From a virus (Duplodnaviria; Heunggongvirae; Uroviricota; Caudoviricetes), in IMG/VR virus record IMGVR_UViG_3300029656_000143, positions 1-14,972 of that record: a DNA stretch of 14,972 nt; one strand, given 5' to 3'. Every line of letters starts with the position of its first letter. Within the stretch, counting starts at the first letter, position 1. Shown here in pieces: positions 1 to 14,972 of the stretch. The notes below the pieces were generated by a model that was not told where the DNA came from, searched no databases, and worked only from the letters and a program-made list of their open reading frames with translations. A program made the position numbers and the translations under genes.

Positions 1-336
1 ATGGCTTCTAAAAAATTTTACTCAGATGATGACATCCAGCTGGCAAAAGCTGCTTTATCAGAATTGCCGGACCTCACCGCTCAACGGAAAACATTGCGTG
101 ATTTTCTTGATGCCATTCGTGATGACATTATTGTCCTGGTAAGGACAAAGGGTTATACACTGGCAGATGTTCGTGACACGCTCAAAAATGCAGGGTATGA
201 AGTAGGAGAGAAGGCACTTCGTGACATTATTCGGGAAGCAGAATCGAAAAAACCATCCCGCCGTTCTTCCTCTAAAACAGCACCTAAAAAGACAGATTCA
301 GGCAGGAAAGATGGCATCGATATGAACAACAATTAA
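1..336 (+). CDS. hypothetical protein, 111 aa, with a basic Ser/Lys/Arg-rich C-terminal tail; possibly 5'-clipped by the window edge
   Basis: ORF begins with ATG at window position 1 and ends with TAA at 334-336. No family recognised. Composition suggests a small nucleic-acid-binding protein (inference only). Confidence 0.4.
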   Translation: MASKKFYSDDDIQLAKAALSELPDLTAQRKTLRDFLDAIRDDIIVLVRTKGYTLADVRDTLKNAGYEVGEKALRDIIREAESKKPSRRSSSKTAPKKTDSGRKDGIDMNNN

Positions 337-351
337 TGTGACAATGTCACA
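337..351. repeat. perfect 15-bp palindrome TGTGACAATGTCACA
   Basis: Read directly: 7-bp arms TGTGACA/TGTCACA around a central A, starting 1 nt after the stop of ORF 1-336, between convergent ORFs. Confidence 0.6.
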
Positions 352-421
352 TCGTGTTCTGAGATTATGATGATTACAGAAAAAAAAGCCCCGGCATAAA
401 TACCAGAGCTTTTCTGTTTAA

Positions 422-1270
422 TCAGACTCGTGGCGGCAATACACCAGGATAATGCCGTGCAATAATATCATTCAGTTTTTCAACAAGGTCAGAACGCTTA
501 AAGACAATGTGTACGGTCCCTTTCTGGTAGCCACGCACCGTAAAATATTCCCCTTCTAACAACTTACCGACATTGTCGCCGTTCCCGAGAAATTCACCAT
601 ACTGCGCCCCGATGCTGTTCCTGAAGTCAGGAACGTTGCGCCCGTCCAGCAGATAAAAAGGACGTACCAGGTCATCCAGTACCTCCCGTCCGCTGCAGTC
701 CAGCGTCACACGCCCGTTACTCCAGCGGTACAGCATGTTTTCAATAATGATTCTCTTGCCCAGACGGCAGGGATTATTGGTTCTGTAATCCCATGACAAT
801 TTCCGGTAGACATCAATCAGTCCCTGTTCAAATGTCTGCATCTTGCTGGCATTCAGATGGCGGAATGTTGCCAGCACATTGTCCAGGGTGATTTCAGGAC
901 AGGTGTCGCTCATCAGCTGGCTATTCCACTCATCACACTGGCATGAACTCATGAAGGTGTACATGCCCGTATCTGTCATCAGGCGGTCCCAGATTTTCCG
1001 GTCGGCAAGACGGGTGATATTCCTTTTCGCTTCTTCCGGTTTATCTATGCGACGAACGGAATCAGTCACGCAGTCTTCAAACCCGTAAAGAAAAATATCA
1101 CCTGACGCATCGAGCAGAATCTTGCGCGCTGTCGCCAGGCATTCCATCGCCTGCATGAACAGTGCAATACCTTCGTTACGCTGCGCGATGATGCGGTCGA
1201 TAGCCACAGACGGAATAACATCTGTCGTGCCGGCAGTATTCAGGTCAGCAGTGGGTAAAGTCTGATTCAT
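422..1270 (-). CDS. orphan hypothetical protein, 282 aa (283 aa if the GTG at 1273 is used); family not recognised
   Basis: Long uninterrupted minus-strand ORF. ATG (plus-strand CAT at 1268-1270) is preceded on the coding strand by GAGGAGA 8 nt upstream. Globular-looking composition. Possible resemblance to DUF4942-type island proteins is a weak recollection only. Confidence 0.65.
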   Translation of the reverse strand: MNQTLPTADLNTAGTTDVIPSVAIDRIIAQRNEGIALFMQAMECLATARKILLDASGDIFLYGFEDCVTDSVRRIDKPEEAKRNITRLADRKIWDRLMTDTGMYTFMSSCQCDEWNSQLMSDTCPEITLDNVLATFRHLNASKMQTFEQGLIDVYRKLSWDYRTNNPCRLGKRIIIENMLYRWSNGRVTLDCSGREVLDDLVRPFYLLDGRNVPDFRNSIGAQYGEFLGNGDNVGKLLEGEYFTVRGYQKGTVHIVFKRSDLVEKLNDIIARHYPGVLPPRV

Positions 1271-1745
1271 CACATTGTCTCCTCATCGTCACGACTGCCG
1301 GGTCAGCCAGGTCATTTCCCGGAGGAGCGAAGCTCCTTCTGCCGTCCGGGTCTTCGGGGATTTCCCCGCAGTGGACCTTTCCGACGGGGGACGCTCACCA
1401 CGTCACGGGGCAGTTGTCCGGGGGCAGACGCAAAAGTTTTTGACGCCTGCGGCAAAAAGTTTTGTGGCTGGTACATCTCTCCCCTGGACGACTGAAACGG
1501 GATGTGGTCGTGTATGTACCCCCGGAAAGTTCGTCTGCGGAGAACGGGCCGCAGTGCGGCGGCAGACAGGCAGAGACAGCTGCGCCATCAGGCGCAGTGG
1601 CCTTACACACCGTAAGGTGTGCAGGGAGCGCCGCATCCGGCGCGACTGAAGAAAAACGACGGCACAACAATGGCATGTGGTGGTCACTGGCACACCACTC
1701 CCGCACAGGTGAAAACAGAGAAAACCGCACGACATTTACAACCAA

Positions 1746-1835
1746 AAAAAGTGAAATTTCTTCACTTTTTCACACTTATTTATCGCGTTGATTTGGTGAT
1801 TATGATGATAAAATAAAGTGAAGTTTTTTCACTTT
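1746..1835 (+). promoter_or_regulatory. promoter region with two operator-like palindromes upstream of the HTH gene
   Basis: Palindrome 1 is AAAAAGTGAA-ATTTC-TTCACTTTTT at 1746-1770. Palindrome 2 is AAAGTGAA-GTTTT-TTCACTTT at 1815-1835. Between them are a -35-like TTGATT (1788-1793) and a -10-like TAAAAT (1809-1814). The SD AAAGGTG lies at 1839-1845 before the ATG at 1850. Hexamer assignment is approximate. Confidence 0.5.
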
Positions 1836-1849
1836 TTCAAAGGTGTTTT

Positions 1850-2101
1850 ATGACCGGCTGGGAACTGCGAATCTGGCGAAAAAGCATGCTCTGGTCACGC
1901 GAAAAAGCGGCCAGAGAATTTGGCGTGACGCAGAGAACATGGCACGCCTGGGAAAATGCGGAACAGGTGGATGTCACCGTCTGGAGGACCACCCAGGCAC
2001 TTTCAGTCCGTGACCTGCTGCCTCACATGCAGGGGATGCGTAAGGCAGATATCATCAGGCGACTGGAAAATGAACTGGGGGAAACGGCAGAGGATGTGTG
2101 A
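1850..2101 (+). CDS. small XRE-type helix-turn-helix DNA-binding protein, 83 aa (putative autoregulated regulator)
   Basis: The segment WSREKAAREFGVTQRTWHAWE matches the HTH pattern of Cro/CI-type regulators. Good SD, ATG start, TGA at 2099-2101. Operator-like palindromes lie immediately upstream. Confidence 0.65.
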   Translation: MTGWELRIWRKSMLWSREKAAREFGVTQRTWHAWENAEQVDVTVWRTTQALSVRDLLPHMQGMRKADIIRRLENELGETAEDV

Positions 2102-2131
2102 GCGTGATTCACAGCCTGGCTGAATGCCAGG

Positions 2132-2302
2132 CTACTGCTCATCAGGAAACAGCTTTTTCAGTTCTTCACCGGAAAGTCCGGTCGCCTCCTGAATCCGTTC
2201 CGGCGTCCAGCCCATATCCCGCAGCCGGCAGGCTATTTCCCGCGCCACTTCAAGAGCACCTTTTTCAAAACCTTTCTGTATAAGACGTTCTGCAATCGTC
2301 AT
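2132..2302 (-). CDS. possible small protein resembling the C-terminal repeat domain of Rpn/YhgA-family proteins (56 aa from the internal ATG; the ORF track extends it to 2398, into the IS end)
   Basis: MTIAERLIQKGFEKGALEVAREIACRLRDMGWTPERIQEATGLSGEELKKLF has the G..G....A......G...E.I...TGLS.EEL pattern I associate with Rpn/YhgA C-termini. AGGAG lies 13 nt upstream of the ATG. Could be a gene fragment or spurious. Confidence 0.3.
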   Translation of the reverse strand: MTIAERLIQKGFEKGALEVAREIACRLRDMGWTPERIQEATGLSGEELKKLFPDEQ

Positions 2303-2325
2303 GCTGTTTGCTCTGCTCCTGCTGG

Positions 2326-2352
2326 CAAAAAAGCCCGGGATTTTGCCGGGCT
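2326..2352 (-). terminator. intrinsic terminator-like hairpin (minus-strand sense)
   Basis: AGCCCGG (2332-2338) and CCGGGCT (2346-2352) form a 7-bp stem with a 7-nt loop. On the minus strand it is followed by TTTTTT (complement of the A-run 2326-2331). Confidence 0.5.
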
Positions 2353-2448
2353 TTGCGGTTCTCTGCGTATTACCGTGAAGGAGATCGGTGAGTAACATCG
2401 ATGGAGATCGGTTCGTGTCACTTTCACAGAACCGTTTTTAAATTACCT

Positions 2449-3198
2449 TCACTGATCTCCTTCGGTCAACGGAGATTGTATTTTCCGCATTGATTCTCCT
2501 TTAAGTTCGATCTTGATACTGCCATGAACCAGTCGATCTAGGATGGCATCCGCATGTGTGGAGTCTCCGATCATTTTGTACCAGTTTTCCACCGGCAACT
2601 GGCTCACTACGATGATTGAGCCTCGTTGGTACATCAGATCCACTATTTCCAGCAGGTCGCTACGCTGTTCTGATGAGAGAGGTTCCAGCCCCCAGTCATC
2701 CAGAAGCAGCAGATCGCTATTATTCAGCCTGGTCAAAAGTTTGCTGTATCTTCCATCAGCATGCCCCTGATAGCACTGTTCCATCAGCGCTTTAAGGCGA
2801 TAATAGTAGACCTTGTATCCCTGTCGGCAGGCATTATGACCAAGTGCACATGCCAGGAACGTTTTACCGCTGCCGGTGGCCCCGGTCAGTAAAATATTTT
2901 GTTTCAGGGTTAACCAGTTTCCCTGACTGAGTGAACGGATGAGGGCCCTGTCCAGCCCTCTATTGTTACGATAATCCAGCTTTGATAACTCAGCATTAAG
3001 TCTGAACCGTGCATGTTTGATCAGACGCTCTGCCTTCCTGTTTTCACGGCAGGTTAGTTCTTCTGCTGTCAGTAATGACAGGCGTTCTTCGAAGCCCAGC
3101 TCCTGGTATGTGCCCGGCTGAGCAAGTTGCTTTTTAAGCGCATCACGGAAGCCGGTGAGTTTAAGTGCGGTCAGTTGTTCGTAAAGATGATTCATCAT
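2449..3198 (-). CDS. istB: IS21-family transposition helper ATPase IstB, 249 aa
   Basis: Walker A GATGSGKT and Walker B LLLLDDWG in a DnaC-like AAA+ layout; lies immediately downstream of istA on the same strand. Confidence 0.9.
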   Translation of the reverse strand: MMNHLYEQLTALKLTGFRDALKKQLAQPGTYQELGFEERLSLLTAEELTCRENRKAERLIKHARFRLNAELSKLDYRNNRGLDRALIRSLSQGNWLTLKQNILLTGATGSGKTFLACALGHNACRQGYKVYYYRLKALMEQCYQGHADGRYSKLLTRLNNSDLLLLDDWGLEPLSSEQRSDLLEIVDLMYQRGSIIVVSQLPVENWYKMIGDSTHADAILDRLVHGSIKIELKGESMRKIQSPLTEGDQ

Positions 3199-3209
3199 TG
3201 GATCCCGTA

Positions 3210-4751
3210 TCAGTGGTAATACTCACTGCCGCGTACGTTTTCGTGTTCCATCGTGGATAACAGATCTGGTTTTGGATCCTGAACAGGTTGTTTATCCAGA
3301 CCTTTTTCCAGGATCGATTTAATACCTGACAGACGCCATACCTTTGTTTTCAGAGCTCTTGCACATGCTGCATTAAGTCTGGCTTTACTGTATTTTTTAT
3401 GAAGGTTCAGGAGTCCAAGGCAGAAGCGATAGCTTTGTTCCGGATGTGGACGAGAGTTCAGTATATGAAGCACATAACTATGAGTTTCACTGCCTATGTG
3501 CCCCGCCCATTCCAGAAGACGCTCTGGCGTCCAGGTGGCATGCTGTCGATGAGCTTCAGGCATGTGCTCGTTGCGGGTACTGTAGCCATAAGTACGCTTG
3601 CGCGGGTGCACAGCAACCTCCTGCCCCTGATTGAAGAGTCTTACCAGTTCTCCGGAGATCCATGCTTCCAGTTGCTGGCCTAACAGCGAACATGGAACCG
3701 AGTAGTAATGTTTGTCGATTTCCACGTGGTAATCGGCATGGACTCTGACTTTCTTCACCAGGGTGTAACTGTAACTGGCTTCAGGAAGAGGCTTCAGTGC
3801 GGGTTTATCAAGCTGGATGAAGAGTTCTGCACGTGAATAACCCAACTTCTGCATTATTTTGTTATTCAGTCTTTCCAGCAACTCCCGAATGCGCTGATTA
3901 AGCGATGCAAGGCTGTAGAAGATCTCATGCCTGATTCGGGCCATGATCCAGCGTTCAACAACCTGAACGCCAACTTCAGCTTTGGCTTTATCTTTCGGTT
4001 TACGTGGCCGCGCAGGCAAAACTGCGACATTATAATGCTCAAGCATCTGCTGGTAGGTAGGGTTAACGTCAGGATCATACTTACATGCCCTGGATGTGGC
4101 GCTTTTCAGATTGTCCGGAACAACAAGTTCAGGAACGCCACCCAACCACTGGAAGCAGCGAACATGACTCATCACCCAGTCTTCAAGCTGCTGAGACCAG
4201 GTGGCCTCTGCCCATGTGTAACTTGATGCCCCGAGAACAGCTACGATGACCTGAGCAGTTCTTATTTCTCCGGTCTCAGGGTCGGTAACGCCAACGGTAG
4301 GTCCACAGTAATCAACGAAAAGTTTTTCGCCAGCTTTATGTACCTGACGCATTGATGGTGAAGTGGTTTTGAGCCATTCACGGTACATCCGGCAGTAATG
4401 GTTATAGCTGTAAAAACCGCCTGGATTACGCTCACAGTATTCTTCCCAGAGTAGCTGCAGCGTCACGCATTTATTACGCAGTTCCCGGTGTACTGTAGCC
4501 CAGTCAGGCAGAGAGTGCTTCTTCATCTTAACCTGGGTCTGAAGGAACGCATGTTTTAGTTTTGTATCATCCCATCCTGTAGGTAAGGGCCACTGCTTTA
4601 TGCCAAGTTGAGCCGCCCGATTAGCATATCTGGATACAACGGAAGGGGAGATTGCAAGACTACGACCAATTTGTCGATGGCTGAGTCCAACACCGTATTT
4701 AAGCCTAAGAATTTCTTTAAGTTTTCTCATAGAAATTGGAACTGTTGGCAT
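3210..4751 (-). CDS. istA: IS21-family transposase IstA, 513 aa
   Basis: N-terminal HTH (LSHRQIGRSLAISPSVVSRY), central DDE-type integrase core, IS21-type C-terminal region; 11-bp gap to istB. Confidence 0.9.
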   Translation of the reverse strand: MPTVPISMRKLKEILRLKYGVGLSHRQIGRSLAISPSVVSRYANRAAQLGIKQWPLPTGWDDTKLKHAFLQTQVKMKKHSLPDWATVHRELRNKCVTLQLLWEEYCERNPGGFYSYNHYCRMYREWLKTTSPSMRQVHKAGEKLFVDYCGPTVGVTDPETGEIRTAQVIVAVLGASSYTWAEATWSQQLEDWVMSHVRCFQWLGGVPELVVPDNLKSATSRACKYDPDVNPTYQQMLEHYNVAVLPARPRKPKDKAKAEVGVQVVERWIMARIRHEIFYSLASLNQRIRELLERLNNKIMQKLGYSRAELFIQLDKPALKPLPEASYSYTLVKKVRVHADYHVEIDKHYYSVPCSLLGQQLEAWISGELVRLFNQGQEVAVHPRKRTYGYSTRNEHMPEAHRQHATWTPERLLEWAGHIGSETHSYVLHILNSRPHPEQSYRFCLGLLNLHKKYSKARLNAACARALKTKVWRLSGIKSILEKGLDKQPVQDPKPDLLSTMEHENVRGSEYYH

Positions 4752-4932
4752 AGGTATCCTTTACCGGAATGGCAAAAGATACAGATCAACACACCTGTGA
4801 AGTTCCAATAACATTGATGGAGATCACTGAATAACAAAATGAGTCAAAAGTGATCTCCATCGATGTTATTCAGCGATCTGTTCAAATGTTATTACCCGAT
4901 CTCGATGGAAGTTATTGAGTGATCTCCTTTCA

Positions 4933-6694
4933 TGAAAATACGCAAACGCTAATTGCCGTGGCGAACATGGCCGAAAGTTATAAACCCGCTCTTGCCGAAG
5001 GCTCAGGGCGTTCGCAGACCTGTCGCATGGTCATCATCGTCAGCAGTGTGGCCTCAGTGGAGCTGACCATTGACACCACAACGGTGATGGCGACGCAGGA
5101 TTACGTTGATGACAAAATTGCAGAGCACGAACAGTCACGACGTCACCCGGACGCCTCGCTGACCGCAAAAGGTTTTACTCAGTTAAGCAGTGCGACCAAC
5201 AGCATATCTGAAACACTGGCCGCAACGCCGAAAGCGGTTAAGGCCGCATATGACCTTGCTAACGGGAAATATACCGCACAGGACGCTACCACAGCGCGAA
5301 AAGGTCTTGTCCAGCTAAGCAGTGCGACCAACAGCACGTCTGAAACACTGGCCGCAACACCAAAAGCCGTTAAGACGGTAATGGATGAAACGAACAAGAA
5401 AGCGCCATTAAACAGCCCTGCACTGACCGGAACGCCAACGACGCCAACTGCGCGACAGGGAACGAATAATACTCAGATCGCAAACACGGCTTTCGTTATG
5501 GCCGCGATTGCCGCCCTTGTAGACTCGTCGCCTGACGCACTGAATACGCTGAACGAGCTGGCAGCGGCGCTGGGCAACGACCCGAATTTTGCTACCACTA
5601 TGACTAATGCGCTTGCGGGTAAGCAACCGAAAGATGCTACCCTGACGGCGCTGGCGGGGCTTGCTACTGCGGCAGACAGGTTTCCGTATTTTACGGGGAA
5701 TGATGTTGCCAGTCTGGCAACTCTGACAAAAGTCGGGCGGGATATTCTTGCGAAATCGACCGTTTCCGCCGTTATCGAATATCTCGGTTTACAGGAAACG
5801 GTAAACCGAGCCGGGAACGCCGTGCAAAAAAATGGCGATACCTTGTCCGGTGGACTTACTTTTGAAAACGACTCAATCCTTGCCTGGATTCGAAATACTG
5901 ACTGGGCGAAGATTGGATTTAAAAATGATGCCGATGGTGACACTGATTCATATATGTGGTTTGAAACAGGTGACAACGGCAATGAATACTTCAAATGGAG
6001 AAGTCGCCAGAGCACCACAACAAAAGACCTGATGAATCTTAAATGGGATGCTCTGTATGTTCTTGTTAAAGCCCTTTTCAGCAGTGAAGTAAAAATATCT
6101 ACAGTCAATGCACTGAGGATATTTAATTCATCTTTTGGTGCTATTTTTCGCCGTTCTGAAGAAAACCTGTATATCATCCCTACACGAGAAAATGAGGGTG
6201 AAAATGGAGATATTGGGCCATTAAGGCCATTCGGCATCAACTTAAGAACAGGAGTTGTGTCTGTTGGTAATGGTGCCAGGATTGATGGCGGGCTGGCACT
6301 TGGCACGAATAACGCGTTGGGTGGGAACTCTATTGTTCTTGGTGATAACGACACCGGATTTAAACAAAATGGCGATGGTAATCTGGATGTTTATGCTAAT
6401 AACGTCCATGTTATGCGCTTTGTTTCCGGAAGCATTCAAAGTAATAAGACCATAAATATTACGGGGCGTGTTAATCCCTCGGATTACGGTAACTTTGATT
6501 CCCGCTATGTGAGAGATATCAGACTTGGCACACGTGTTGTCCAGACCATGCAGAAAGGGGTGATGTATGAGAAAGCAGGGCACGTAATTACCGGGCTTGG
6601 TATTGTCGGTGAAGTCGATGGTGATGACCCCGCAGTATTCAGGCCAATACAAAAATACATCAATGGCACATGGTATAACGTCGCACAGGTGTAA
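4933..6694 (+). pseudogene. H: 5'-truncated P2-type tail fibre gene H; the first ~80-100 codons are missing, replaced by the IS end
   Basis: Product from TLIAVANMAESYKPALAEGSGR onward, ending GTWYNVAQV, matches my recollection of the P2 gpH tail fibre. The ORF-track reading frame (4919-6694) begins with a GTG inside the IS terminus. No upstream H segment is present left of the IS. Confidence 0.85.
5180..5374 (+). repeat. tandem 63-bp repeat units (period 132 bp) inside H
   Basis: 5180-5242 and 5312-5374 are near-identical (CAGTTAAGCAGTGCGACCAACAGCA... / CAGCTAAGCAGTGCGACCAACAGCA...), encoding QLSSATNS(I/T)SETLAATPKAVK twice. Confidence 0.7.
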
Positions 6695-6697
6695 TTT

Positions 6698-7225
6698 ATG
6701 CAGCATTTAAAAAATATTACTGCGGGTAATCCAAAAACTGTTGCCCAATATCAACTGACAAAAAATTTTGATGTTATCTGGTTATGGTCCGAAGAGGGAA
6801 AAAACTGGTATGAGGAAGTAAGTAATTTTCAGGAAGACACGATAAAGATTGTTTACGACGAGAATAATATAATTGTCGGCATCACCAGAGATGCTTCAAC
6901 GCTTAACCCTGAAGGTTTCAGCGTTGTCGAGGTTCCTGATATTACCTCCAACCGACGTGCTGATGACTCAGGTAAATGGATGTTTAAGGATGGTGCCGTG
7001 ATTAAGCGGATTTATACGGCAGATGAACAGGAGCAACAGGCAGAATCACAAAAGGCAGCTTTACTTTCCGAAGCTGAATCCGTGATTTTTCCGCTGGAAC
7101 GCGCTGTCAGGCTGAATATGGCGACGGATGAGGAACGCAGCCGACTGGAAGCATGGGAACGCTACAGCGTTCTGGTCAGTCGTGTGGATCCTGCAAATCC
7201 CGAATGGCCGGAAATGCCGCAATAA
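6698..7225 (+). CDS. G: tail fibre assembly protein (P2 gpG-type), 175 aa
   Basis: Starts 4 nt after the H stop with SD AGGTG. Sequence (MQHLKNI...[12 protein letters not shown]) matches my recollection of P2-type G/Tfa proteins and the conserved H-G order. Confidence 0.85.
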
Positions 7226-7446
7226 GTTGTATGATCTCTGGTGTGAGCTTACATATCTATAGCACAGAGTAAAGCCTAATCTGACAGACCGCTCTGTGTC
7301 TGGAGTAGATTTTAGTAAAGCATTATTTTATTAGTGCAAATTCTAATCAATACATTTTATGTATATGATATCCTGCGGACTTTAATGACTTGGTTTAGGC
7401 TAACCAGATAACACTGAAGGAATATTTTTGATAATTAAGGTGCGGT

Positions 7447-8040
7447 ATGTTTACTAAGCGACGATTAAAAAATATTAACTGGGAGGCAAGTTCAGTGATT
7501 CTTGCTATGGTTCTCTTTGTTGGAAATATATTTTACACAAATCACCGTGATGATATAAGCATGGAGGCTGAGAGGGACAGTATCAGAACAATGTTTGCAT
7601 ATGAAATCGCTAATAACCATCGCGCTCTCACTTTTCTTGATAAAACGAGACATATTGGCTTTGACGAAAATTCGGAGCATTTTGTTGGCGAGCCTTTTGC
7701 CATTAATGTCAAATCATTAGGAGGGCCTCGCTTACAGGTTGCATTAAACCAGACTGATAAAGTGTTTAAAGCCTACTTCAGTGAATTAAGTAAACTTGAT
7801 AAAGAGGATGTTACTCTTCTTATGGACTATTACAATGAGCAAAGCATCCTGCTGGAGTGTGTAAAATCTACGTTACAGAAGATGAAAAGCAATAATGATA
7901 TTAAAGTTGATATTGATGGTTACTTATTAGAAGAACACTTCATGAATGAGTTTAATCTTTCTAATATTTTGCTTAAACGCTATAGCCATTTGTTGTCACA
8001 ACACCTCAAAAAACCTGAAACAAAAGATTTACATAATTGA
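7447..8040 (+). CDS. AT-rich 197-aa membrane-anchored protein at the Z/fun lysogenic-conversion locus; candidate superinfection-exclusion / anti-phage protein
   Basis: Position between G and FI is where P2 carries Z/fun. SD AAGGTG 5 nt upstream. Visibly AT-rich codon usage compared with flanking tail genes. N-terminal KRRLK followed by the hydrophobic stretch SSVILAMVLFVGNIFY (signal-anchor-like). Flanked by 221-bp and 329-bp noncoding regions and a strong terminator. Confidence 0.7.
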   Translation: MFTKRRLKNINWEASSVILAMVLFVGNIFYTNHRDDISMEAERDSIRTMFAYEIANNHRALTFLDKTRHIGFDENSEHFVGEPFAINVKSLGGPRLQVALNQTDKVFKAYFSELSKLDKEDVTLLMDYYNEQSILLECVKSTLQKMKSNNDIKVDIDGYLLEEHFMNEFNLSNILLKRYSHLLSQHLKKPETKDLHN

Positions 8041-8247
8041 TGATCTGCTAATGGTTATTCATGGGATAACTATGTTTTATATGTAATCCAACTCAGATGA
8101 ATTATTGATTCTGGATAATAACCGCAGAGCGGCATATACCCTGACAGGCAAATGTCCGCTTCTTGATCAAAGCAGACTGTCAGATTTGATAACTTTTGGG
8201 TTATGTAAATTGTCAGTCGGAAAATGAGTGTGTACAAATCAGGACAG

Positions 8248-8273
8248 GCGGGCGAATTGCCCGCTTTTTCTTT
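8248..8273 (+). terminator. rho-independent terminator downstream of the Z/fun-locus gene
   Basis: GCGGGC (8248-8253), loop GAATT, GCCCGC (8259-8264), then TTTTTCTTT (8265-8273). Confidence 0.65.
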
Positions 8274-8369
8274 ATCTGTTGTTTCATCCACTGACCAGCC
8301 AGGTCAAATAGCGTCTCATGCACTACCCAACGGAAAATAGTTGCACCCATTAACCACGGAGTTAAACGG

Positions 8370-9560
8370 ATGAGTGACTATCATCACGGCGTGCAGGTGC
8401 TGGAAATTAACGACGGCACCCGCGTCATTTCCACCGTATCCACGGCCATTGTCGGCATGGTCTGCACGGCCAGCGATGCGGATGCGGAAACCTTCCCCCT
8501 CAATAAACCGGTGCTGATTACCAATGTGCAGAGCGCAATTGCAAAGGCCGGTAAAAAAGGCACGCTGGCGGCGTCGTTACAGGCCATCGCAGACCAGTCA
8601 AAACCGGTCACCGTTGTTGTGCGCGTGGAAGACGGCACCGGCGACGACGAAGAAACGAAACTCGCGCAGACCGTTTCCAATATCATCGGCACCACCGACG
8701 AAAATGGTCAGTACACCGGACTGAAAGCCCTGCTGGCGGCGGAGTCGGTAACCGGTGTTAAACCGCGTATTCTCGGTGTGCCGGGACTGGACACCAAAGA
8801 GGTGGCTGTTGCACTGGCATCAGTCTGTCAGAAGCTGCGCGCTTTCGGGTATATCAGCGCATGGGACTGTAAAACCATTTCCGAGGTGAAAGCCTACCGT
8901 CAGAATTTCAGCCAGCGTGAGCTGATGGTCATCTGGCCGGATTTCCTCGCATGGGATACGGTCAGCAGTACCACCGCCACCGCGTATGCCACCGCCCGTG
9001 CGCTGGGTCTGCGCGCTAAAATCGACCAGGAGCAGGGCTGGCATAAAACGCTGTCCAATGTCGGGGTGAACGGTGTTACCGGCATCAGCGCATCCGTCTT
9101 CTGGGATTTGCAGGAGTCCGGCACCGATGCTGACCTGCTTAACGAGTCTGGTGTCACAACGCTGATTCGCCGCGACGGTTTCCGCTTCTGGGGTAACCGT
9201 ACCTGCTCTGATGACCCGCTGTTCCTCTTTGAAAACTACACCCGCACCGCGCAGGTGCTGGCCGACACGATGGCTGAGGCGCACATGTGGGCGGTGGACA
9301 AGCCCATCACCGCAACGCTGATTCGCGACATCGTTGACGGCATTAATGCCAAATTCCGTGAGCTGAAAACAAACGGCTATATCGTGGATGCGACCTGCTG
9401 GTTCAGCGAAGAATCCAACGATGCGGAAACCCTCAAGGCCGGAAAACTGTATATCGACTACGACTATACCCCGGTGCCTCCTCTTGAAAACCTGACCCTG
9501 CGCCAGCGTATTACCGATAAATACCTGGCAAATCTGGTCACCTCGGTTAACAGCAATTAA
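8370..9560 (+). CDS. FI: contractile tail sheath protein (P2 gpFI), 396 aa
   Basis: MSDYHHGVQVLEINDGTRVISTV... matches my recollection of P2 FI. SD GGAG upstream. Length and FI-FII-E-T-U-D order as in P2. Confidence 0.92.
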   Translation: MSDYHHGVQVLEINDGTRVISTVSTAIVGMVCTASDADAETFPLNKPVLITNVQSAIAKAGKKGTLAASLQAIADQSKPVTVVVRVEDGTGDDEETKLAQTVSNIIGTTDENGQYTGLKALLAAESVTGVKPRILGVPGLDTKEVAVALASVCQKLRAFGYISAWDCKTISEVKAYRQNFSQRELMVIWPDFLAWDTVSSTTATAYATARALGLRAKIDQEQGWHKTLSNVGVNGVTGISASVFWDLQESGTDADLLNESGVTTLIRRDGFRFWGNRTCSDDPLFLFENYTRTAQVLADTMAEAHMWAVDKPITATLIRDIVDGINAKFRELKTNGYIVDATCWFSEESNDAETLKAGKLYIDYDYTPVPPLENLTLRQRITDKYLANLVTSVNSN

Positions 9561-9572
9561 GGAGCCTGACCG

Positions 9573-10091
9573 ATGGCAATGCCGCGCAAACTCAAGTTAA
9601 TGAACGTCTTTCTGAACGGCTACAGCTATCAGGGCGTTGCAAAGTCCGTCACGCTGCCAAAACTGACCCGTAAGCTCGAAAACTATCGCGGTGCGGGGAT
9701 GAACGGCAGCGCACCGGTAGACCTCGGCCTTGATGACGATGCGCTGTCAATGGAGTGGTCGCTCGGGGGCTTCCCGGATTCGGTTATCTGGGAGCTTTAC
9801 GCCGCAACCGGCGTGGATGCCGTGCCGATTCGTTTTGCTGGCTCTTACCAGCGCGACGATACCGGCGAAACGGTGGCCGTCGAAGTAGTCATGCGTGGAC
9901 GTCAGAAAGAAATCGACACCGGCGAGGGGAAACAGGGAGAAGATACCGAGTCGAAAATCTCCGTGGTCTGCACCTATTTCCGGCTGACGATGGACGGTAA
10001 GGAGCTGGTCGAAATTGACACCATCAACATGATTGAGAAGGTGAACGGCGTCGACCGGCTGGAGCAACACCGCCGCAATATCGGCCTGTGA
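9573..10091 (+). CDS. FII: tail tube protein (P2 gpFII), 172 aa
   Basis: SD AAGGAG overlaps the FI stop. Sequence and length as recalled for P2 FII; position directly after the sheath gene. Confidence 0.92.
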   Translation: MAMPRKLKLMNVFLNGYSYQGVAKSVTLPKLTRKLENYRGAGMNGSAPVDLGLDDDALSMEWSLGGFPDSVIWELYAATGVDAVPIRFAGSYQRDDTGETVAVEVVMRGRQKEIDTGEGKQGEDTESKISVVCTYFRLTMDGKELVEIDTINMIEKVNGVDRLEQHRRNIGL

Positions 10092-10098
10092 TTTTCAT

Positions 10099-10119
10099 CC
10101 GGTCAGCCAGGCTGACCGG
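10099..10119. repeat. perfect 21-bp palindrome CCGGTCAGCC-A-GGCTGACCGG between FII and E
   Basis: Read directly; 10-bp arms; lies 8 nt after the FII stop. No T-run follows. Confidence 0.55.
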
Positions 10120-10147
10120 TTAACCCTGATTCAGAAGTGAGAAAACC

Positions 10148-10423
10148 ATGAACAAAGAAAATGTGATTACCCTGGACAATCCGGTCAAGCGTGGTGAGCA
10201 GGTCATCGAACAGGTCACGCTAATGAAACCCAATGCCGGGACGCTGCGCGGTGTCAGTCTGGCTGCGGTCGCGAACTCCGAAGTCGATGCACTGATTAAA
10301 GTGCTGCCGCGCATGACGGCACCGATGCTGACCGAACAGGAAGTTGCCGCGCTGGAACTGCCTGACCTTGTGGCGCTGGCCGGTAAGGTGGTCGGTTTTT
10401 TGTCGCCGAACTCGGTGCAGTAA
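10148..10423 (+). CDS. E: tail assembly chaperone (P2 gpE), 91 aa
   Basis: Small ORF between the tube and tape measure genes, with the slippery site near its 3' end; matches the P2 gene order. Confidence 0.85.
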   Translation: MNKENVITLDNPVKRGEQVIEQVTLMKPNAGTLRGVSLAAVANSEVDALIKVLPRMTAPMLTEQEVAALELPDLVALAGKVVGFLSPNSVQ

Positions 10424-10575
10424 CGTTCCCGAAAAATCTCTCGGTCGATGACCTGATGGCGGATGTGGCAGTGATATTTCACTGGCCGCCATCAGAACTG
10501 TATCCCATGAGTCTGACCGAACTCATCACATGGCGCGAAAAGGCGCTCCGGCGAAGCGGAAACACGAATGAGTAA
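10148..10575 (+). CDS. E+E': tail assembly chaperone E+E', 142 aa, made by programmed -1 ribosomal frameshift at T TTT TTG (10396-10402)
   Basis: Translating by hand, a -1 shift at the heptamer continues VAELGAVTFPKNLSVDDLMADVAVIFHWPPSELYPMSLTELITWREKALRRSGNTNE to the TAA at 10573-10575, overlapping the T start. 85 + 57 aa = 142 aa, the recalled size of P2 E+E'. Confidence 0.75.
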
Positions 10576-13015
10576 CAATGTAAAATTACAGGTATTGCTC
10601 AGGGCTGTTGACCAGGCATCCCGCCCGTTTAAATCCATCCGTACAGCGAGCAAGTCGCTGTCGGGGGATATCAGGGAAACACAAAAATCACTGCGCGAGC
10701 TGAACGGTCACGCATCCCGTATTGAGGGATTTCGCAAGACCAGCGCACAGCTCGCCGTGACTGGTCAGGAACTGAAAAAAGCCAGACAGGAAGCCGCAGC
10801 TCTGGCTGTCCAGTTTAAAAATACTGAACGACCGACAAATGCACAGGCAAAGGCAATGGAAGCCGCGCGTAAAAATGCGTCTGAGTTACAGGCGAAATAT
10901 AACAGCCTGAGATTGTCGGTACAGCGCCAGCGTCAGGAATTGAGTCAGGCGGGTATTAATACCCGTAATCTGGCGCATGATGAACGAGGGCTGAAAAACC
11001 GTATCAGTGAAACCACCGCACAGCTTAACCGTCAGCGCGACGCGCTGGCGCGTGTCAGTGCGCAACAGGCAAAACTTAACGCAGTCAAACAGCGTTATCA
11101 GGCAGGCAAGGAACTGGCCGGAAATATGGCCTCGGTGGGCGCTGCCGGTGTGGGGATTGCGGCGGCGGGAACGATGGCCGGAGTTAAGCTGCTGATGCCC
11201 GGTTATGAGTTTGCGCAGAAAAACTCAGAATTGCAGGCTGTGCTCGGTGTGGCAAAAGACTCCGCCGAAATGGCCGCGCTCCGCAAACAGGCGCGCCAGC
11301 TCGGCGACAACACCGCCGCCTCGGCGGATGATGCGGCCGGTGCACAGATTATCATTGCGAAAGCGGGTGGAGATGCTGCGGCTATTCAGGCGGCAACGCC
11401 GGTCACGCTGAATATGGCGCTGGCGAACCGCCGCACGATGGAAGAAAACGCCGCCCTGCTGATGGGGATGAAATCCGCCTTTCAGCTTTCAAACGATAAG
11501 GTCGCTCATATCGGGGATGTTCTCTCCATGACGATGAACAAAACCGCCGCCGATTTTGACGGCATGAGCGATGCGCTGACCTATGCCGCACCTGTGGCAA
11601 AAAATGCCGGTGTCAGCATTGAAGAAACCGCCGCAATGGTCGGGGCGCTGCATGATGCAAAAATTACAGGCTCAATGGCGGGGACGGGAAGCCGTGCCGT
11701 GTTAAGTCGCCTGCAGGCACCAACGGGAAAAGCATGGGATGCACTCAAAGAGCTTGGCGTGAAAACCTCAGACAGCAAGGGAAACACCCGGCCAATATTT
11801 ACCATTCTGAAAGAAATGCAGGCCAGTTTTGAGAAAAACCGGCTCGGTACTGCCCAGCAGGCCGAATACATGAAAACCATTTTCGGGGAGGAAGCCAGCT
11901 CAGCCGCCGCCGTGCTGATGACTGCCGCCTCAACCGGAAAGCTGGACAAACTGACTGCTGCGTTTAAAGCCTCAGACGGGAAGACCGCAGAGCTGGTAAA
12001 TATTATGCAGGACAATCTCGGCGGTGACTTTAAGGAGTTTCAGTCCGCTTATGAGGCGGTGGGGACTGACCTGTTTGACCAGCAGGAAGGCGCACTGCGT
12101 AAGCTCACGCAGACGGCCACAAAGTATGTGTTAAAACTCGACGGCTGGATCCAGAAAAACAAATCACTGGCGTCAACCATCGGCATCATTGCCGGTGGTG
12201 CACTGGCACTGACTGGTGTCATCGGTGCCATTGGCCTCGTAGCCTGGCCGGTTATCACCGGCATCAATGCCATTATCGCGGCAGCAGGCGCAATGGGAGC
12301 AATCTTCACGACGGTTGGCAGTGCTGTTATGACGGCCATCGGGGCGATTAGCTGGCCGGTTGTGGCCGTGGTGGCCGCCATTGTCGCCGGGGCGTTGCTT
12401 ATCCGTAAATACTGGGAGCCTGTCAGCGCATTCTTTGGCGGTGTGGTTGAAGGGCTGAAAGCGGCATTTGCGCCAGTGGGGGAACTGTTCACGCCACTTA
12501 AGCCGGTGTTTGACTGGCTGGGTGAAAAGTTACAGGCCGCGTGGCAGTGGTTTAAAAACCTGATTGCCCCGGTCAAAGCCACACAGGACACCCTGAACCG
12601 TTGCCGTGATACGGGTGTCATGTTCGGGCAGGCACTGGCTGACGCGCTGATGCTGCCGCTTAATGCGTTCAACAAACTGCGCAGCGGCATTGACTGGGTA
12701 CTGGAAAAGCTCGGGGTCATCAACAAAGAGTCAGACACACTTGACCAGACCGCCGCCAGAACTCATGCCGCCACGTATGGCACCGGTGGTTATATTCCGG
12801 CGACCAGCTCTTATGCAGGCTATCAGGCTTATCAGCCGGTCACGGCACCGGCTGGCCGCTCTTATGTGGACCAGAGTAAAAACGAATATCACATCAGCCT
12901 GACGGGTGGTACTGCGCCGGGGACACAGCTTGACCGCCAGTTACAGGATGCGCTCGAAAAATACGAGCGGGATAAACGTGCGCGCGCCCGTGCCAGCATG
13001 ATGCATGACGGTTAA
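10568..13015 (+). CDS. T: tail tape measure protein (P2 gpT), 815 aa
   Basis: Coiled-coil-like Q/A/R/K-rich N-terminal third and a long Gly/Ala/Ile-rich hydrophobic segment (about aa 530-620), typical of tape measure proteins. Length and position as in P2. Confidence 0.9.
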   Translation: MSNNVKLQVLLRAVDQASRPFKSIRTASKSLSGDIRETQKSLRELNGHASRIEGFRKTSAQLAVTGQELKKARQEAAALAVQFKNTERPTNAQAKAMEAARKNASELQAKYNSLRLSVQRQRQELSQAGINTRNLAHDERGLKNRISETTAQLNRQRDALARVSAQQAKLNAVKQRYQAGKELAGNMASVGAAGVGIAAAGTMAGVKLLMPGYEFAQKNSELQAVLGVAKDSAEMAALRKQARQLGDNTAASADDAAGAQIIIAKAGGDAAAIQAATPVTLNMALANRRTMEENAALLMGMKSAFQLSNDKVAHIGDVLSMTMNKTAADFDGMSDALTYAAPVAKNAGVSIEETAAMVGALHDAKITGSMAGTGSRAVLSRLQAPTGKAWDALKELGVKTSDSKGNTRPIFTILKEMQASFEKNRLGTAQQAEYMKTIFGEEASSAAAVLMTAASTGKLDKLTAAFKASDGKTAELVNIMQDNLGGDFKEFQSAYEAVGTDLFDQQEGALRKLTQTATKYVLKLDGWIQKNKSLASTIGIIAGGALALTGVIGAIGLVAWPVITGINAIIAAAGAMGAIFTTVGSAVMTAIGAISWPVVAVVAAIVAGALLIRKYWEPVSAFFGGVVEGLKAAFAPVGELFTPLKPVFDWLGEKLQAAWQWFKNLIAPVKATQDTLNRCRDTGVMFGQALADALMLPLNAFNKLRSGIDWVLEKLGVINKESDTLDQTAARTHAATYGTGGYIPATSSYAGYQAYQPVTAPAGRSYVDQSKNEYHISLTGGTAPGTQLDRQLQDALEKYERDKRARARASMMHDG

Positions 13016-13029
13016 GGAGGTGACGAAAA

Positions 13030-13509
13030 ATGATGCTCGCGTTAGGTATGTTTGTTTTTATGCGCCAGACGCTGCCACACCAGACCATGCAGCGTGAATC
13101 AGATTATCGCTGGCCGTCAAATTCCCGTATCGGTAAACGGGACGCCTTTCAGTTTCTCGGTGTGGGTGAGGAAAACATCACGCTGGCCGGTGTGCTTTAT
13201 CCCGAACTGACCGGCGGAAAGCTGACGATGACCACGCTCAGACTGATGGCAGAGGAAGGCCGGGCGTGGCCGTTGCTGGATGGCACCGGCATGATTTACG
13301 GCATGTATGTCATCAGCAGGGTGAGTGAAACAGGGAGTATTTTCTTTGCAGACGGCACACCCCGGAAAATTGATTTTACGCTGTCGCTCACCCGCGTTGA
13401 TGAATCACTGGCCGCGCTTTATGGCGATATCGGTAAACAGGCGGAGTCGCTCATCGGTAAGGCTGGCAGTATGGCGACTAAATTCACGGGTATGACGGGG
13501 GCGGGATAA
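13030..13509 (+). CDS. U: tail protein U (P2 gpU), 159 aa
   Basis: SD AGGAGG (13015-13020) overlaps the T stop. Length and order as in P2. Stop overlaps the D start (TAATG). Confidence 0.85.
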   Translation: MMLALGMFVFMRQTLPHQTMQRESDYRWPSNSRIGKRDAFQFLGVGEENITLAGVLYPELTGGKLTMTTLRLMAEEGRAWPLLDGTGMIYGMYVISRVSETGSIFFADGTPRKIDFTLSLTRVDESLAALYGDIGKQAESLIGKAGSMATKFTGMTGAG

Positions 13510-14672
13510 TGCTGGATGCACTGACATTTGATGCAGGCAGTACGCTGACGCCGGATTACATGCTGATGCTCGACAGCAGGGATATTACCGGCAATATCAG
13601 CGACCGTCTGATGAGCATGACCCTGACGGATAACCGGGGCTTTGAGGCTGACCAGCTTGATATTGAACTGAGCGATGCCGACGGGCAGGTCGGGCTACCG
13701 ATTCGTGGCGCTGTCCTGACGGTGTATATCGGCTGGAAAGGTTTTGCCCTGGTATGCAAAGGGAAATTTACCGTTGATGAGGTTGAACACCGGGGCGCGC
13801 CGGATGTGGTTACCATCCGCGCCCGGAGTGCAGATTTTCGCGGGACGCTCAATTCCCGCCGTGAAGGCTCCTGGCATGACACCACGCTCGGTGCGATTGT
13901 TGAGGTGATAGCCTCCCGTAACAGGCTGGAAGCCAGTGTCGCGCCGTCACTGGCCGGAATTAAAATCCCGCACATCGACCAGTCGCAGGAGTCTGATGCA
14001 AAATTCCTGACCCGCCTTGCTGAACGCAACGGCGGTGAGGTGTCGGTAAAAATGGGAAAACTGTTGTTTCTCAAAGCGGGGCAGGGAGTGACGGCCAGCG
14101 GTAAAAAAATCCCGCAGATTACCATAACCCGCAGCGACGGCGACCGTCATCATTTTGCGATTGCTGACCGTGGAGCCTACACCGGCGTAACGGCAAAGTG
14201 GTTACACACCAAAGACCCGAAGCCGCAAAAGCAGAAGGTAAAACTGAAACGCAAAAAGAAAGAGAAACACCTGCGCGCACTGGAGCACCCCAAAGCGAAA
14301 CCGGTCACGCAGAAGAAAGCGCCAAAAGTACCGGAAGCGCGCGAAGGTGAATACATGGTCGGTGAGGCTGACAACGTTTTTGCCCTGACCACGGTTTATG
14401 CCACGAAAGCACAGGCCATGCGCGCCGCTCAGGCGAAGTGGGACAAACTGCAACGGGGCGTCGCGGAGTTTTCCATCAGCCTGGCTACCGGTCGGGCAGA
14501 TATTTACACGGAAACACCGGTTAAAGTGTCAGGCTTTAAGCGCGTCATAGACGAGCAGGACTGGACAATCACTAAGGTGACACATTTTCTGAATAATAGC
14601 GGCTTCACGACGTCCTTAGAGCTTGAGGTCAGGCTTTCTGATGTGGAGTACGAAACAGAAGATGATGGGTGA
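13509..14672 (+). CDS. D: tail protein D (P2 gpD), 387 aa
   Basis: ATG overlaps the U stop by 1 nt. Length and position as in P2. Contains a Lys-rich tract at about 14210-14345. Confidence 0.88.
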   Translation: MLDALTFDAGSTLTPDYMLMLDSRDITGNISDRLMSMTLTDNRGFEADQLDIELSDADGQVGLPIRGAVLTVYIGWKGFALVCKGKFTVDEVEHRGAPDVVTIRARSADFRGTLNSRREGSWHDTTLGAIVEVIASRNRLEASVAPSLAGIKIPHIDQSQESDAKFLTRLAERNGGEVSVKMGKLLFLKAGQGVTASGKKIPQITITRSDGDRHHFAIADRGAYTGVTAKWLHTKDPKPQKQKVKLKRKKKEKHLRALEHPKAKPVTQKKAPKVPEAREGEYMVGEADNVFALTTVYATKAQAMRAAQAKWDKLQRGVAEFSISLATGRADIYTETPVKVSGFKRVIDEQDWTITKVTHFLNNSGFTTSLELEVRLSDVEYETEDDG

Positions 14673-14753
14673 TGTTTTTATTTTATCTATTTGTTTTATA
14701 AGGATAAATTAACTAAAATGGCACCATCAACAAAACCGGAAGAGGTGCTCGCG

Positions 14754-14972
14754 ATGTTTCATTGTCCTTTATGCCAGCATGCCGCACATGCGCGTACAAG
14801 TCGCTATATCACTGACACGACAAAAGAGCGTTATCACCAGTGTCAGAACGTGAATTGCAGCGCCACGTTCATCACTTATGAGTCGGTACAGCGATACATC
14901 GTGAAGCCGGGAGAAGTCCACGCCGTAAGACCGCACCCGTTGCCGTCAGGGCAGCAAATTATGTGGATGTAA
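14754..14972 (+). CDS. ogr: late-gene transcriptional activator Ogr (zinc-finger), 72 aa
   Basis: MFHCPLCQHAAHARTSRYITDTTKERYHQCQNVNCSATF... with the C-X2-C-X22-C-X4-C zinc finger. I recognise this as P2 Ogr. SD GAAGAGG upstream of the ATG at 14754. AT-rich 80-bp region upstream. Confidence 0.92.
   Translation: MFHCPLCQHAAHARTSRYITDTTKERYHQCQNVNCSATFITYESVQRYIVKPGEVHAVRPHPLPSGQQIMWM

Follow-up and report, generated by a model that had tools for sequence, protein, structure and literature searches.

The stretch analyzed here (the window: 14,972 nucleotides, positions 1 to 14,972 of the IMG/VR virus record IMGVR_UViG_3300029656_000143) encodes an 83-amino-acid helix-turn-helix (HTH) protein, and the promoter of its gene lies between two copies of one perfect palindrome, AGTGAA-N5-TTCACT. 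Over positions 1-2363 the window matches the leading region of IncI1 plasmids, for example pAMSC6, with 100% identity. We consider it highly likely that the two palindromes, here called O1 and O2, are the operators of the adjacent HTH protein and that this protein is a dimeric autorepressor. The evidence is comparative: the palindrome recurs at the promoters of homologous genes, and its variable bases follow residues of the predicted recognition helix. The best-supported reading of the sequence is thus a switch of an ordinary kind, an autoregulated HTH repressor with palindromic operators, from an uncharacterised, plasmid-restricted family. The elements of this switch are the following.

1746..1770, no strand assigned: predicted distal operator O1, AAAAAGTGAA-atttc-TTCACTTTTT, with the core AGTGAA-N5-TTCACT at 1750-1766
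1788..1793, + strand: candidate -35 hexamer TTGATT, as read from the sequence, with a putative 15-bp spacer to the -10 element
1805..1832, - strand: weak candidate leftward sigma-70 promoter, with -35 GTGAAA (1832-1827) in O2, a 16-nt spacer and -10 TATCAT (1810-1805), from which transcription would cross O1 and run toward the ssi element
1806..1814, + strand: extended -10 element TGaTAAAAT, as read from the sequence, between O1 and O2
1815..1835, no strand assigned: predicted proximal operator O2, AAAGTGAA-gtttt-TTCACTTT, with the core at 1817-1833
1840..1845, + strand: Shine-Dalgarno-like AAGGTG, as read from the sequence, 4 nt before the ATG
1850..2101, + strand: gene of the 83-amino-acid HTH protein (WP_000148285; YgeA in some IncI1 records), a predicted dimeric repressor binding O1 and O2

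Both inverted repeats pair perfectly and have the coordinates and arm lengths given in the original prediction, which was made from the letters of the window alone. The arms of O1 (1746-1755 and 1761-1770) are 10 nt each, 100% complementary and separated by a 5-nt spacer; those of O2, AAAGTGAA (1815-1822) and TTCACTTT (1828-1835), form a perfect 8-nt inverted repeat with a spacer of the same length. There are exactly two matches to AGTGAA-N5-TTCACT in the window and none further with one mismatch, where 0.03 would be expected, and two matches were obtained in 0 of 200 shuffles. O1 and O2 belong to the two copies of a single 38-nt direct repeat (1744-1781 and 1811-1848; 82% identity, 67 bp apart). 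The predicted -35- and -10-like hexamers can be read between the palindromes, with the second palindrome over the predicted start, as had been claimed. Starting 2 nt past the -10 hexamer and 33 bp ahead of the ATG, O2 spans the predicted transcription start, which would fall at about 1821-1822; the center of O1 lies about 63 bp upstream of that position. TTGATT is not kept in a homologous locus of 85% identity (L008), so the HTH-gene promoter probably relies on its extended -10 element.

The protein itself carries generic public names, either "XRE family" or "YgeA", the latter after the R64/ColIb numbering. Its AlphaFold2 model (pLDDT, the predicted local distance difference test, 88.9) has helices at residues 3-12, 17-24, 28-35, 42-60 and 65-76, that is, a five-helix XRE-type bundle with the HTH formed by helices 2 and 3, a long fourth helix and no strands. 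The top Foldseek matches of this model are all XRE-type, with probabilities of 0.9-0.99 but with E-values of 0.18 or higher; Aca2 comes first (E = 0.18, template-modelling score 0.61, non-significant), followed by HipB, SinR and the controller proteins of restriction-modification systems. Aca2 (7ezy) is also the best match of a profile search against the PDB (E = 1.3e-4 and 5.9e-4), in which only the N-terminal 60-69 residues are covered. The NCBIfam search returned no family, and the PHROGs search returned phrog_6962 alone, a family of unknown function. The family is narrow, with 84 clusters at E <= 1e-10 among 1.84 billion representatives. A homologue is present in 3,699 of 72,556 plasmids, 3,222 of them conjugative.

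To follow the palindrome across this family, homologues were taken from annotated plasmids and from one genome per species, which gave 55 analyzable loci from many Enterobacterales genera, with protein identities of 30-100%. Upstream windows of 260 bp (14.2 kb in total) were compared with the remaining 321 kb of the same loci. A perfect AGTGxy-N5-y'x'CACT palindrome occurs upstream of the gene in 33 of the 55 loci, with 40 sites in the 14.2 kb and 2 in the 321 kb elsewhere, an enrichment of about 450-fold over the flanks. Relaxing the match criterion gives 6 sites outside the upstream windows, where shuffling predicts 6.7. The proximal palindrome begins 30-34 bp before the ATG in most loci, and a TAnnnT hexamer (mostly TAAAAT) stands 0-2 nt before it in about 20 of the 29 loci listed. 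Together these positions define the conserved unit as a -10 box followed by an operator over the predicted +1. A distal second copy, 55-67 bp upstream of the proximal one, is also found in L006, L007, L008, L020, L024-27, L031, L033, L036-37, L039-41 and L049. The spacing is 55-57 bp in most lineages, 64 bp in one (L049) and 67 bp in IncI1. Some Buttiauxella-type loci have a third copy, and many family members have the proximal site only.

The AGTG/CACT core is constant, and positions 5 and 6 of the half-site depend on the lineage (AA, CA, TA, TC, AC or CC), with both arms changing together in most sites. The half-sites are distributed as follows.

AGTGAA: IncI1 (this window)
AGTGCA: most loci
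AGTGTC, AGTGAC and AGTGCC: other lineages
Mixed AA/TA halves: a Salmonella variant of 85% identity

These changes track the protein. Arg33 goes with C at half-site position 6 in 7/7 protein variants, and Ala, Asp, Ser, Thr or Val at residue 33 goes with A at that position in 19/19; His32 pairs with A or T at position 5, and Lys32 mostly with C. This co-variation leads us to predict that half-site position 6 is read by residue 33. A conserved core, arms that change in step and co-variation with the helix are what would be expected of the operators of a cognate dimeric repressor, and the three patterns are hard to account for by hairpins or by a host factor. The footprint across the 55 loci thus speaks for the adjacent 83-amino-acid protein as the cognate regulator, as originally predicted. 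It likewise favors the predicted layout of an autorepressed regulator, since the palindrome is kept at the homologues' own promoters, after a -10-like hexamer.

Several observations weigh against this interpretation. About 40% of the homologous loci have no perfect site, some of them having degenerate variants, and in the IncL/M branch no AGTG-type operator was found upstream of the HTH homologue. Many homologues have weak -35 elements, so that O1 could activate and not only repress. The rightward promoter (+ strand) is absent from the list of the consensus scanner because its spacer is only 15 bp. The Pfam scores of the protein are below the curated cut-offs (HTH_31, 23.5 versus 27 bits; HTH_3, 16.8 versus 23); the XRE-type label that the protein had been given thus agrees with the five-helix model but not with these scores, and several homologues do have precomputed PF01381 or PF13560 matches. 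In laboratory transposon sequencing of pESBL, the gene (Hp21) was non-essential for maintenance and transfer, which leaves the switch without a known phenotype. Finally, our literature search found no paper on this protein, nor any binding, footprint, transcription-start or reporter data for it.

The position of the gene bears on when the switch could act. On the IncI1 plasmid, nikA and oriT lie just left of the window (in window orientation), and the 1.2-kb region is present at >= 80% coverage in 1,311 of 5,426 complete E. coli genomes. The neighboring features are the following.

1-336, + strand: yggA, a leading-region gene that, like the HTH gene, is opposed to the leading genes
422..1273, - strand: DUF4942 (methyltransferase-like) leading gene (Pfam DUF4942, 1.8e-51; phrog_6263, DNA methyltransferase, 1.3e-16)
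1318-1646, - strand: Frpo/ssi-like single-strand promoter element, in which the + strand folds and transcription is directed leftward into the DUF4942 gene
2132-2363, - strand: Rpn-family remnant, convergent with the HTH gene, of which only the last small C-terminal open reading frame is left

The HTH gene is monocistronic in IncI1, its upstream neighbor being divergent and its downstream neighbor convergent. The divergent DUF4942 gene is a possible, unproven second target of the switch. Two further segments of this leading region, including one that precedes ssb, share 80-82% identity with segment 1318-1646, which ends about 100 bp left of O1; the segment also matches Frpo1 of the F plasmid at 74% identity over 118 nt. 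As single-stranded DNA it folds at -131 kcal/mol (z = -8.5 versus shuffles). Three class-1 Frpo/ssi single-strand promoters have been described in IncI1 (PMC12672017), and the repeat identity, the likeness to Frpo1 and the fold indicate that this segment is one of them. The annotated "hypothetical" open reading frames 1275-1649 and 1619-1816 over the ssi element are probably not genes. The study that mapped the early-gene single-strand promoters of the IncI1 leading region named no regulator (PMC12672017).

According to the literature, leading genes are read from the transferred strand, which is the + strand here. In the intact plasmid, ardA, psiA, psiB, a ParB-like gene and ssb follow beyond the Rpn gene, all on the - strand. 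The HTH gene, on the + strand, is opposed to ardA, psiB and ssb, and the same holds for pESBL, where the gene table lists it as the 252-bp Hp21, opposite to its neighbors. Because of this orientation it should not be transcribed until the complementary strand exists. In the F plasmid, the product of an anti-oriented leading gene appears only 10-20 min after double-strand conversion. Orf35 of pCTX-M3, a YggA homologue, has been proposed to repress the nikAB-tra operon, so that both anti-oriented genes near oriT look like late-expressed regulators.

An autorepression mechanism could involve one dimer on each 17-bp palindrome, with one recognition helix per AGTGAA half-site. Since O2 follows the -10 element so closely and lies over the predicted transcription start, a dimer bound there would block RNA polymerase at the start, and the gene would repress itself. 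O1, 67 bp upstream, would be an auxiliary site, probably adding cooperativity. As the gene is unreadable from the incoming single strand, the HTH protein would be made only once the stretch is double-stranded. In a naive recipient, the promoter would then fire unrepressed after complementary-strand synthesis and afterwards settle at a low, self-limited level; such an overshoot on entry has been shown for other plasmid negative-feedback circuits (PMC3937220). That the protein binds as a dimer, where transcription starts, which sign the regulation has and when it sets in after transfer are inferred from the arrangement of the sequence.

Whether the protein has further targets was addressed on the complete 95-kb IncI1 plasmid pAMSC6. 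The motif search proposed with the original prediction, run on this plasmid, found copies only at the HTH promoter: there is no further AGTGAA-N5-TTCACT with up to one mismatch, and the three further matches obtained with up to two mismatches are within chance expectation, none of them at promoters of interest. Thus, no targets besides the gene's own promoter were found on the IncI1 plasmid. The suggestion that the switch may control the neighboring orphan gene or genes is unsupported, because the motif occurs at one promoter, the gene is monocistronic and the leftward promoter is weak. We consider it unlikely that the protein and its operators act beyond their own repression as a timer of the leading region that is licensed by double-stranded DNA. 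Such a timer could shut the leftward duplex promoter into the DUF4942 operon, generate an activator-then-repressor pulse, or bind host chromosomal sites.

Two other ways of using the same protein and sites have to be weighed. The pair could form an activator-plus-repressor switch as in C proteins, in which O1 helps RNA polymerase at low protein level and O2 shuts the promoter at high level, so that expression would come as a delayed, sharp pulse once a new cell has been entered. This would fit the -35 hexamers, which are weak or non-conserved where the -10 element is conserved, and the place of O1, which is upstream of the -35 without promoter overlap (at about -63 here and about -54 in lineages with 56-bp spacing). 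The spacings of 55-57 and 67 bp are also about one helical turn apart, and C proteins are among the structural neighbors. However, the 64-bp spacing of L049 means that phasing is not strict, C-protein operators are adjacent instead of 55-67 bp apart, and the HTH gene is not followed by a restriction gene here. Since the proximal site stands alone in many family members, the conserved core function is independent of O1, and we find a switch of the C-protein type rather improbable. A similarly low probability is given to the pair mainly controlling the leftward double-strand promoter through ssi into the DUF4942 gene, by which residual expression of the first leading operon would be silenced after establishment. 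There is a promoter-like site whose -35 lies in O2, relative to which O1 would be at about +32 to +48, and in at least 17 other loci the HTH promoter is beside a repeated promoter-like element. In L038, L045 and L046 an extra operator stands on the leading-gene strand, immediately after A/T-rich hexamers of the TATAAA/TTCTAA type and before a GC-rich structured region. On the other hand, the leftward promoter matches the consensus at only 9/12 positions, a score for which chance alone would give 0.6 sites in the region, and no comparable leftward promoter can be read in L006. Its conservation is not independently judgeable, because its bases are shared with the rightward extended -10.

The remaining alternatives dispense with the protein as a DNA-binding autorepressor, or add to it. 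Aca2 is the nearest solved relative and binds both promoter DNA and 5' untranslated region (UTR) hairpins, so RNA control of a similar kind could be added here if transcription started upstream of O2 and the protein, bound to the O2 hairpin in the 5' UTR, blocked translation; O2, 16 nt ahead of the ATG, has a folding energy of -6.3 kcal/mol. Nevertheless, with a conserved -10 immediately in front of O2, transcription is predicted to start inside the palindrome, so that the full hairpin would be missing from the mRNA, and the structure of the predicted 5' UTR is not out of the ordinary (z = +0.88); we think this added layer quite improbable. It is very unlikely that the palindromes function as nucleic-acid hairpins, either as weak bidirectional terminators or as structures of the incoming single strand. 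On both strands, each does form an A/U-rich stem with a U run behind it (-6.3 to -9.4 kcal/mol, z -2.4 to -4.1), and both also fold in a single-stranded DNA model. However, the terminator scan called neither stem, each of which has only two G-C pairs, and a gene kept in thousands of plasmids could not be expressed with a terminator placed between its -10 and its ATG. Moreover, the AGTG sequence itself is kept, not pairing alone, and the variable bases follow the recognition-helix residues. Least credible of all is that a host factor such as MetR binds the sites instead of the plasmid protein. The IncI1 sites contain TGAA-N5-TTCA, which resembles the MetR consensus, and this resemblance is the only point in its favor. 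Homologous promoters have TGCA, TGTC, TGAC or TGCC in place of TGAA and keep AGTG/CACT, so the match to a host factor is confined to one lineage, while the plasmid protein is associated with the sites in general.

Among characterised systems, Aca2, an anti-CRISPR-associated autorepressor that binds inverted repeats in its own promoter, is closest. Aca2 of phage ZF40 (PDB 7ezy, 7vjo-q) is the best sequence match among solved structures and the top Foldseek match. Like the 83-amino-acid protein, it is a small HTH protein of a mobile element with two similar inverted repeats at its own promoter, and it is produced on entry into a new host, as would be expected of the protein described here. Aca2 proteins have 116-125 amino acids and a C-terminal alpha/beta dimerisation domain (PMC8434428), unlike the all-helical protein of 83 residues. 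The Aca2 repeats IR1 and IR2 are TTCG-N6/N8-CGAA, as opposed to AGTG-N9-CACT here, and Aca2 follows an anti-CRISPR gene in an operon, whereas the HTH gene stands alone. No match to Pfam DUF1870 (the Aca2 family) was found in the 83-amino-acid protein. It is not an Aca2 family member, since it lacks the C-terminal dimerisation domain, has another operator and is in no anti-defence operon.

The C proteins (C.AhdI, C.Esp1396I, C.BclI) share the XRE fold, a length of about 80 amino acids and two palindromes before their own gene, and they are timing devices after entry of a mobile element into a naive cell. Their C boxes have a different consensus, GACT...AGTC. C boxes are adjacent and over the -35, whereas the sites here are 67 bp apart center to center and flank the promoter; C genes are co-transcribed with a restriction endonuclease gene, whereas the next gene here is the convergent Rpn-family remnant. 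Only in the distant IncL/M branch, where the AGTG operator is lacking, does a "restriction endonuclease" open reading frame come after the HTH homologue. The ArdK/KorA repressors (IncW R388, IncN, IncP) are also plasmid HTH repressors of an early-transferred region, and their negative feedback produces a transcriptional overshoot in the new host (PMC3937220). They belong to another family, with the KorA fold and an alpha/beta dimerisation domain, and the ArdK sites are direct repeats located at the -35 of five promoters, in contrast to palindromes at a single promoter. HTH antitoxins (HipB, HigA, MqsA) have the XRE fold and autorepress through promoter palindromes, and HipB is among the top structural matches; they are paired with a toxin in an operon, whereas the HTH gene here has no co-directional neighbor.

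IncI1 and related plasmids are major carriers of extended-spectrum beta-lactamase and other resistance genes, and the placement of the switch is notable: its gene runs against the leading genes, immediately behind a single-strand promoter, in the DNA that IncI1-type resistance plasmids transfer first. What is gained is a defined putative operator, AGTGxy-N5-y'x'CACT, with a predicted specificity code. The HTH gene also offers an experimental handle on one of the few leading-region genes that would be expressible only after double-strand conversion. Should the protein regulate only itself, the result amounts to a neat annotation; control of leading or host genes as well would make it relevant to how these plasmids become established in new hosts. 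The timer function considered above, if true, would supply the regulatory layer, missing so far, that brings "zygotic induction" to an end in IncI1-type plasmids.

Some names and motif matches could mislead. Orf35 and Orf36 of pCTX-M3, putative tra regulators, were considered as homologues and rejected, Orf35 being the YggA homologue. F ygfA and ygeA were rejected as well, the former encoding an SLT transglycosylase and the latter being a different gene; no homologue of the 83-amino-acid protein was found in the leading region of the F plasmid. The DUF4942 gene is not M.EcoGIX, as the gene of that methylase is elsewhere on the plasmid. Scans of viral contigs with AAGTGAA-N5-TTCACTT and AAGTGCA-N5-TGCACTT gave at least 119 loci each, with a homologue in 0/239 among the matches listed; these are chance matches in a very large collection and are uninformative on the regulon. 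An Rfam search gave only two sub-threshold chance matches, sraA (E = 0.83) and NsiR1.

The right-hand part of the window has a different origin. An IS21-family insertion sequence (IS), ISEc12, occupies 2364-4945, with istB (2449-3198) and istA (3210-4751) both on the - strand. It interrupts the plasmid sequence at 2363/2364 and has removed the Rpn nuclease gene of intact IncI1 plasmids. Window 4919-14972 is a P2-like phage tail module with genes for tail fibre, fibre assembly, sheath, tube, tape measure, gpU, gpD and Ogr/Delta, in which the tail fibre gene is N-terminally truncated. The window is therefore an IncI1 leading-region fragment joined to a P2-like prophage through an IS. Among 5,426 complete E. 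coli genomes, none has the plasmid part and also covers the window past 4947; the junction is either a rare IS-mediated rearrangement or an assembly chimera.

Variant settings of the gene were seen in other loci. In at least 17 of them the HTH promoter adjoins a repeated, promoter-like element of the leading region. One such repeated element of about 270 bp (L006 4582-4911) is unrelated in sequence to the IncI1 ssi copies. Matching segments are found in L015, L016, L018, L020, L022, L023, L026, L027, L030, L031, L035 and L041, and within these loci further copies with the same orientation precede other leading operons. The element probably represents a further class of promoter element in the leading region. 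The extra operators of L045, L046 and L038, of the AGTGCA type and on the opposite strand, are about 825, 1120 and 969 bp upstream of the HTH start, respectively. A terminator-like hairpin and the GC-rich structured region follow them, and a toxin-antitoxin-like pair lies between them and the HTH gene; they could be a second target or a relic promoter. L017, L021 and L044 have two copies of ATTCGTAC-N3-GTACGAAT, with ends (TTCG...CGAA) reminiscent of Aca2 sites, 85-117 bp upstream of the HTH start and before the HTH operator. These palindromes adjoin a divergent pair (c16 then c21) that, by eye, is a candidate RelE/HigB-like toxin with an HTH partner.

In the IncL/M branch (L004 5001-5829, from pCTX-M3, and L047 and L048; about 31% identity) the HTH homologue is in a co-directional operon and overlaps a "restriction endonuclease" gene by 8 bp, which differs from the IncI1 setting. 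This branch may work differently, perhaps in a C-protein-like manner. In L056 (Providencia sp. Me31A, 3001-4290) the HTH homologue is followed by an Rpn-family nuclease gene on the same strand, the two being convergent in IncI1. A possible association between the HTH family and Rpn nucleases recurs in a few lineages.

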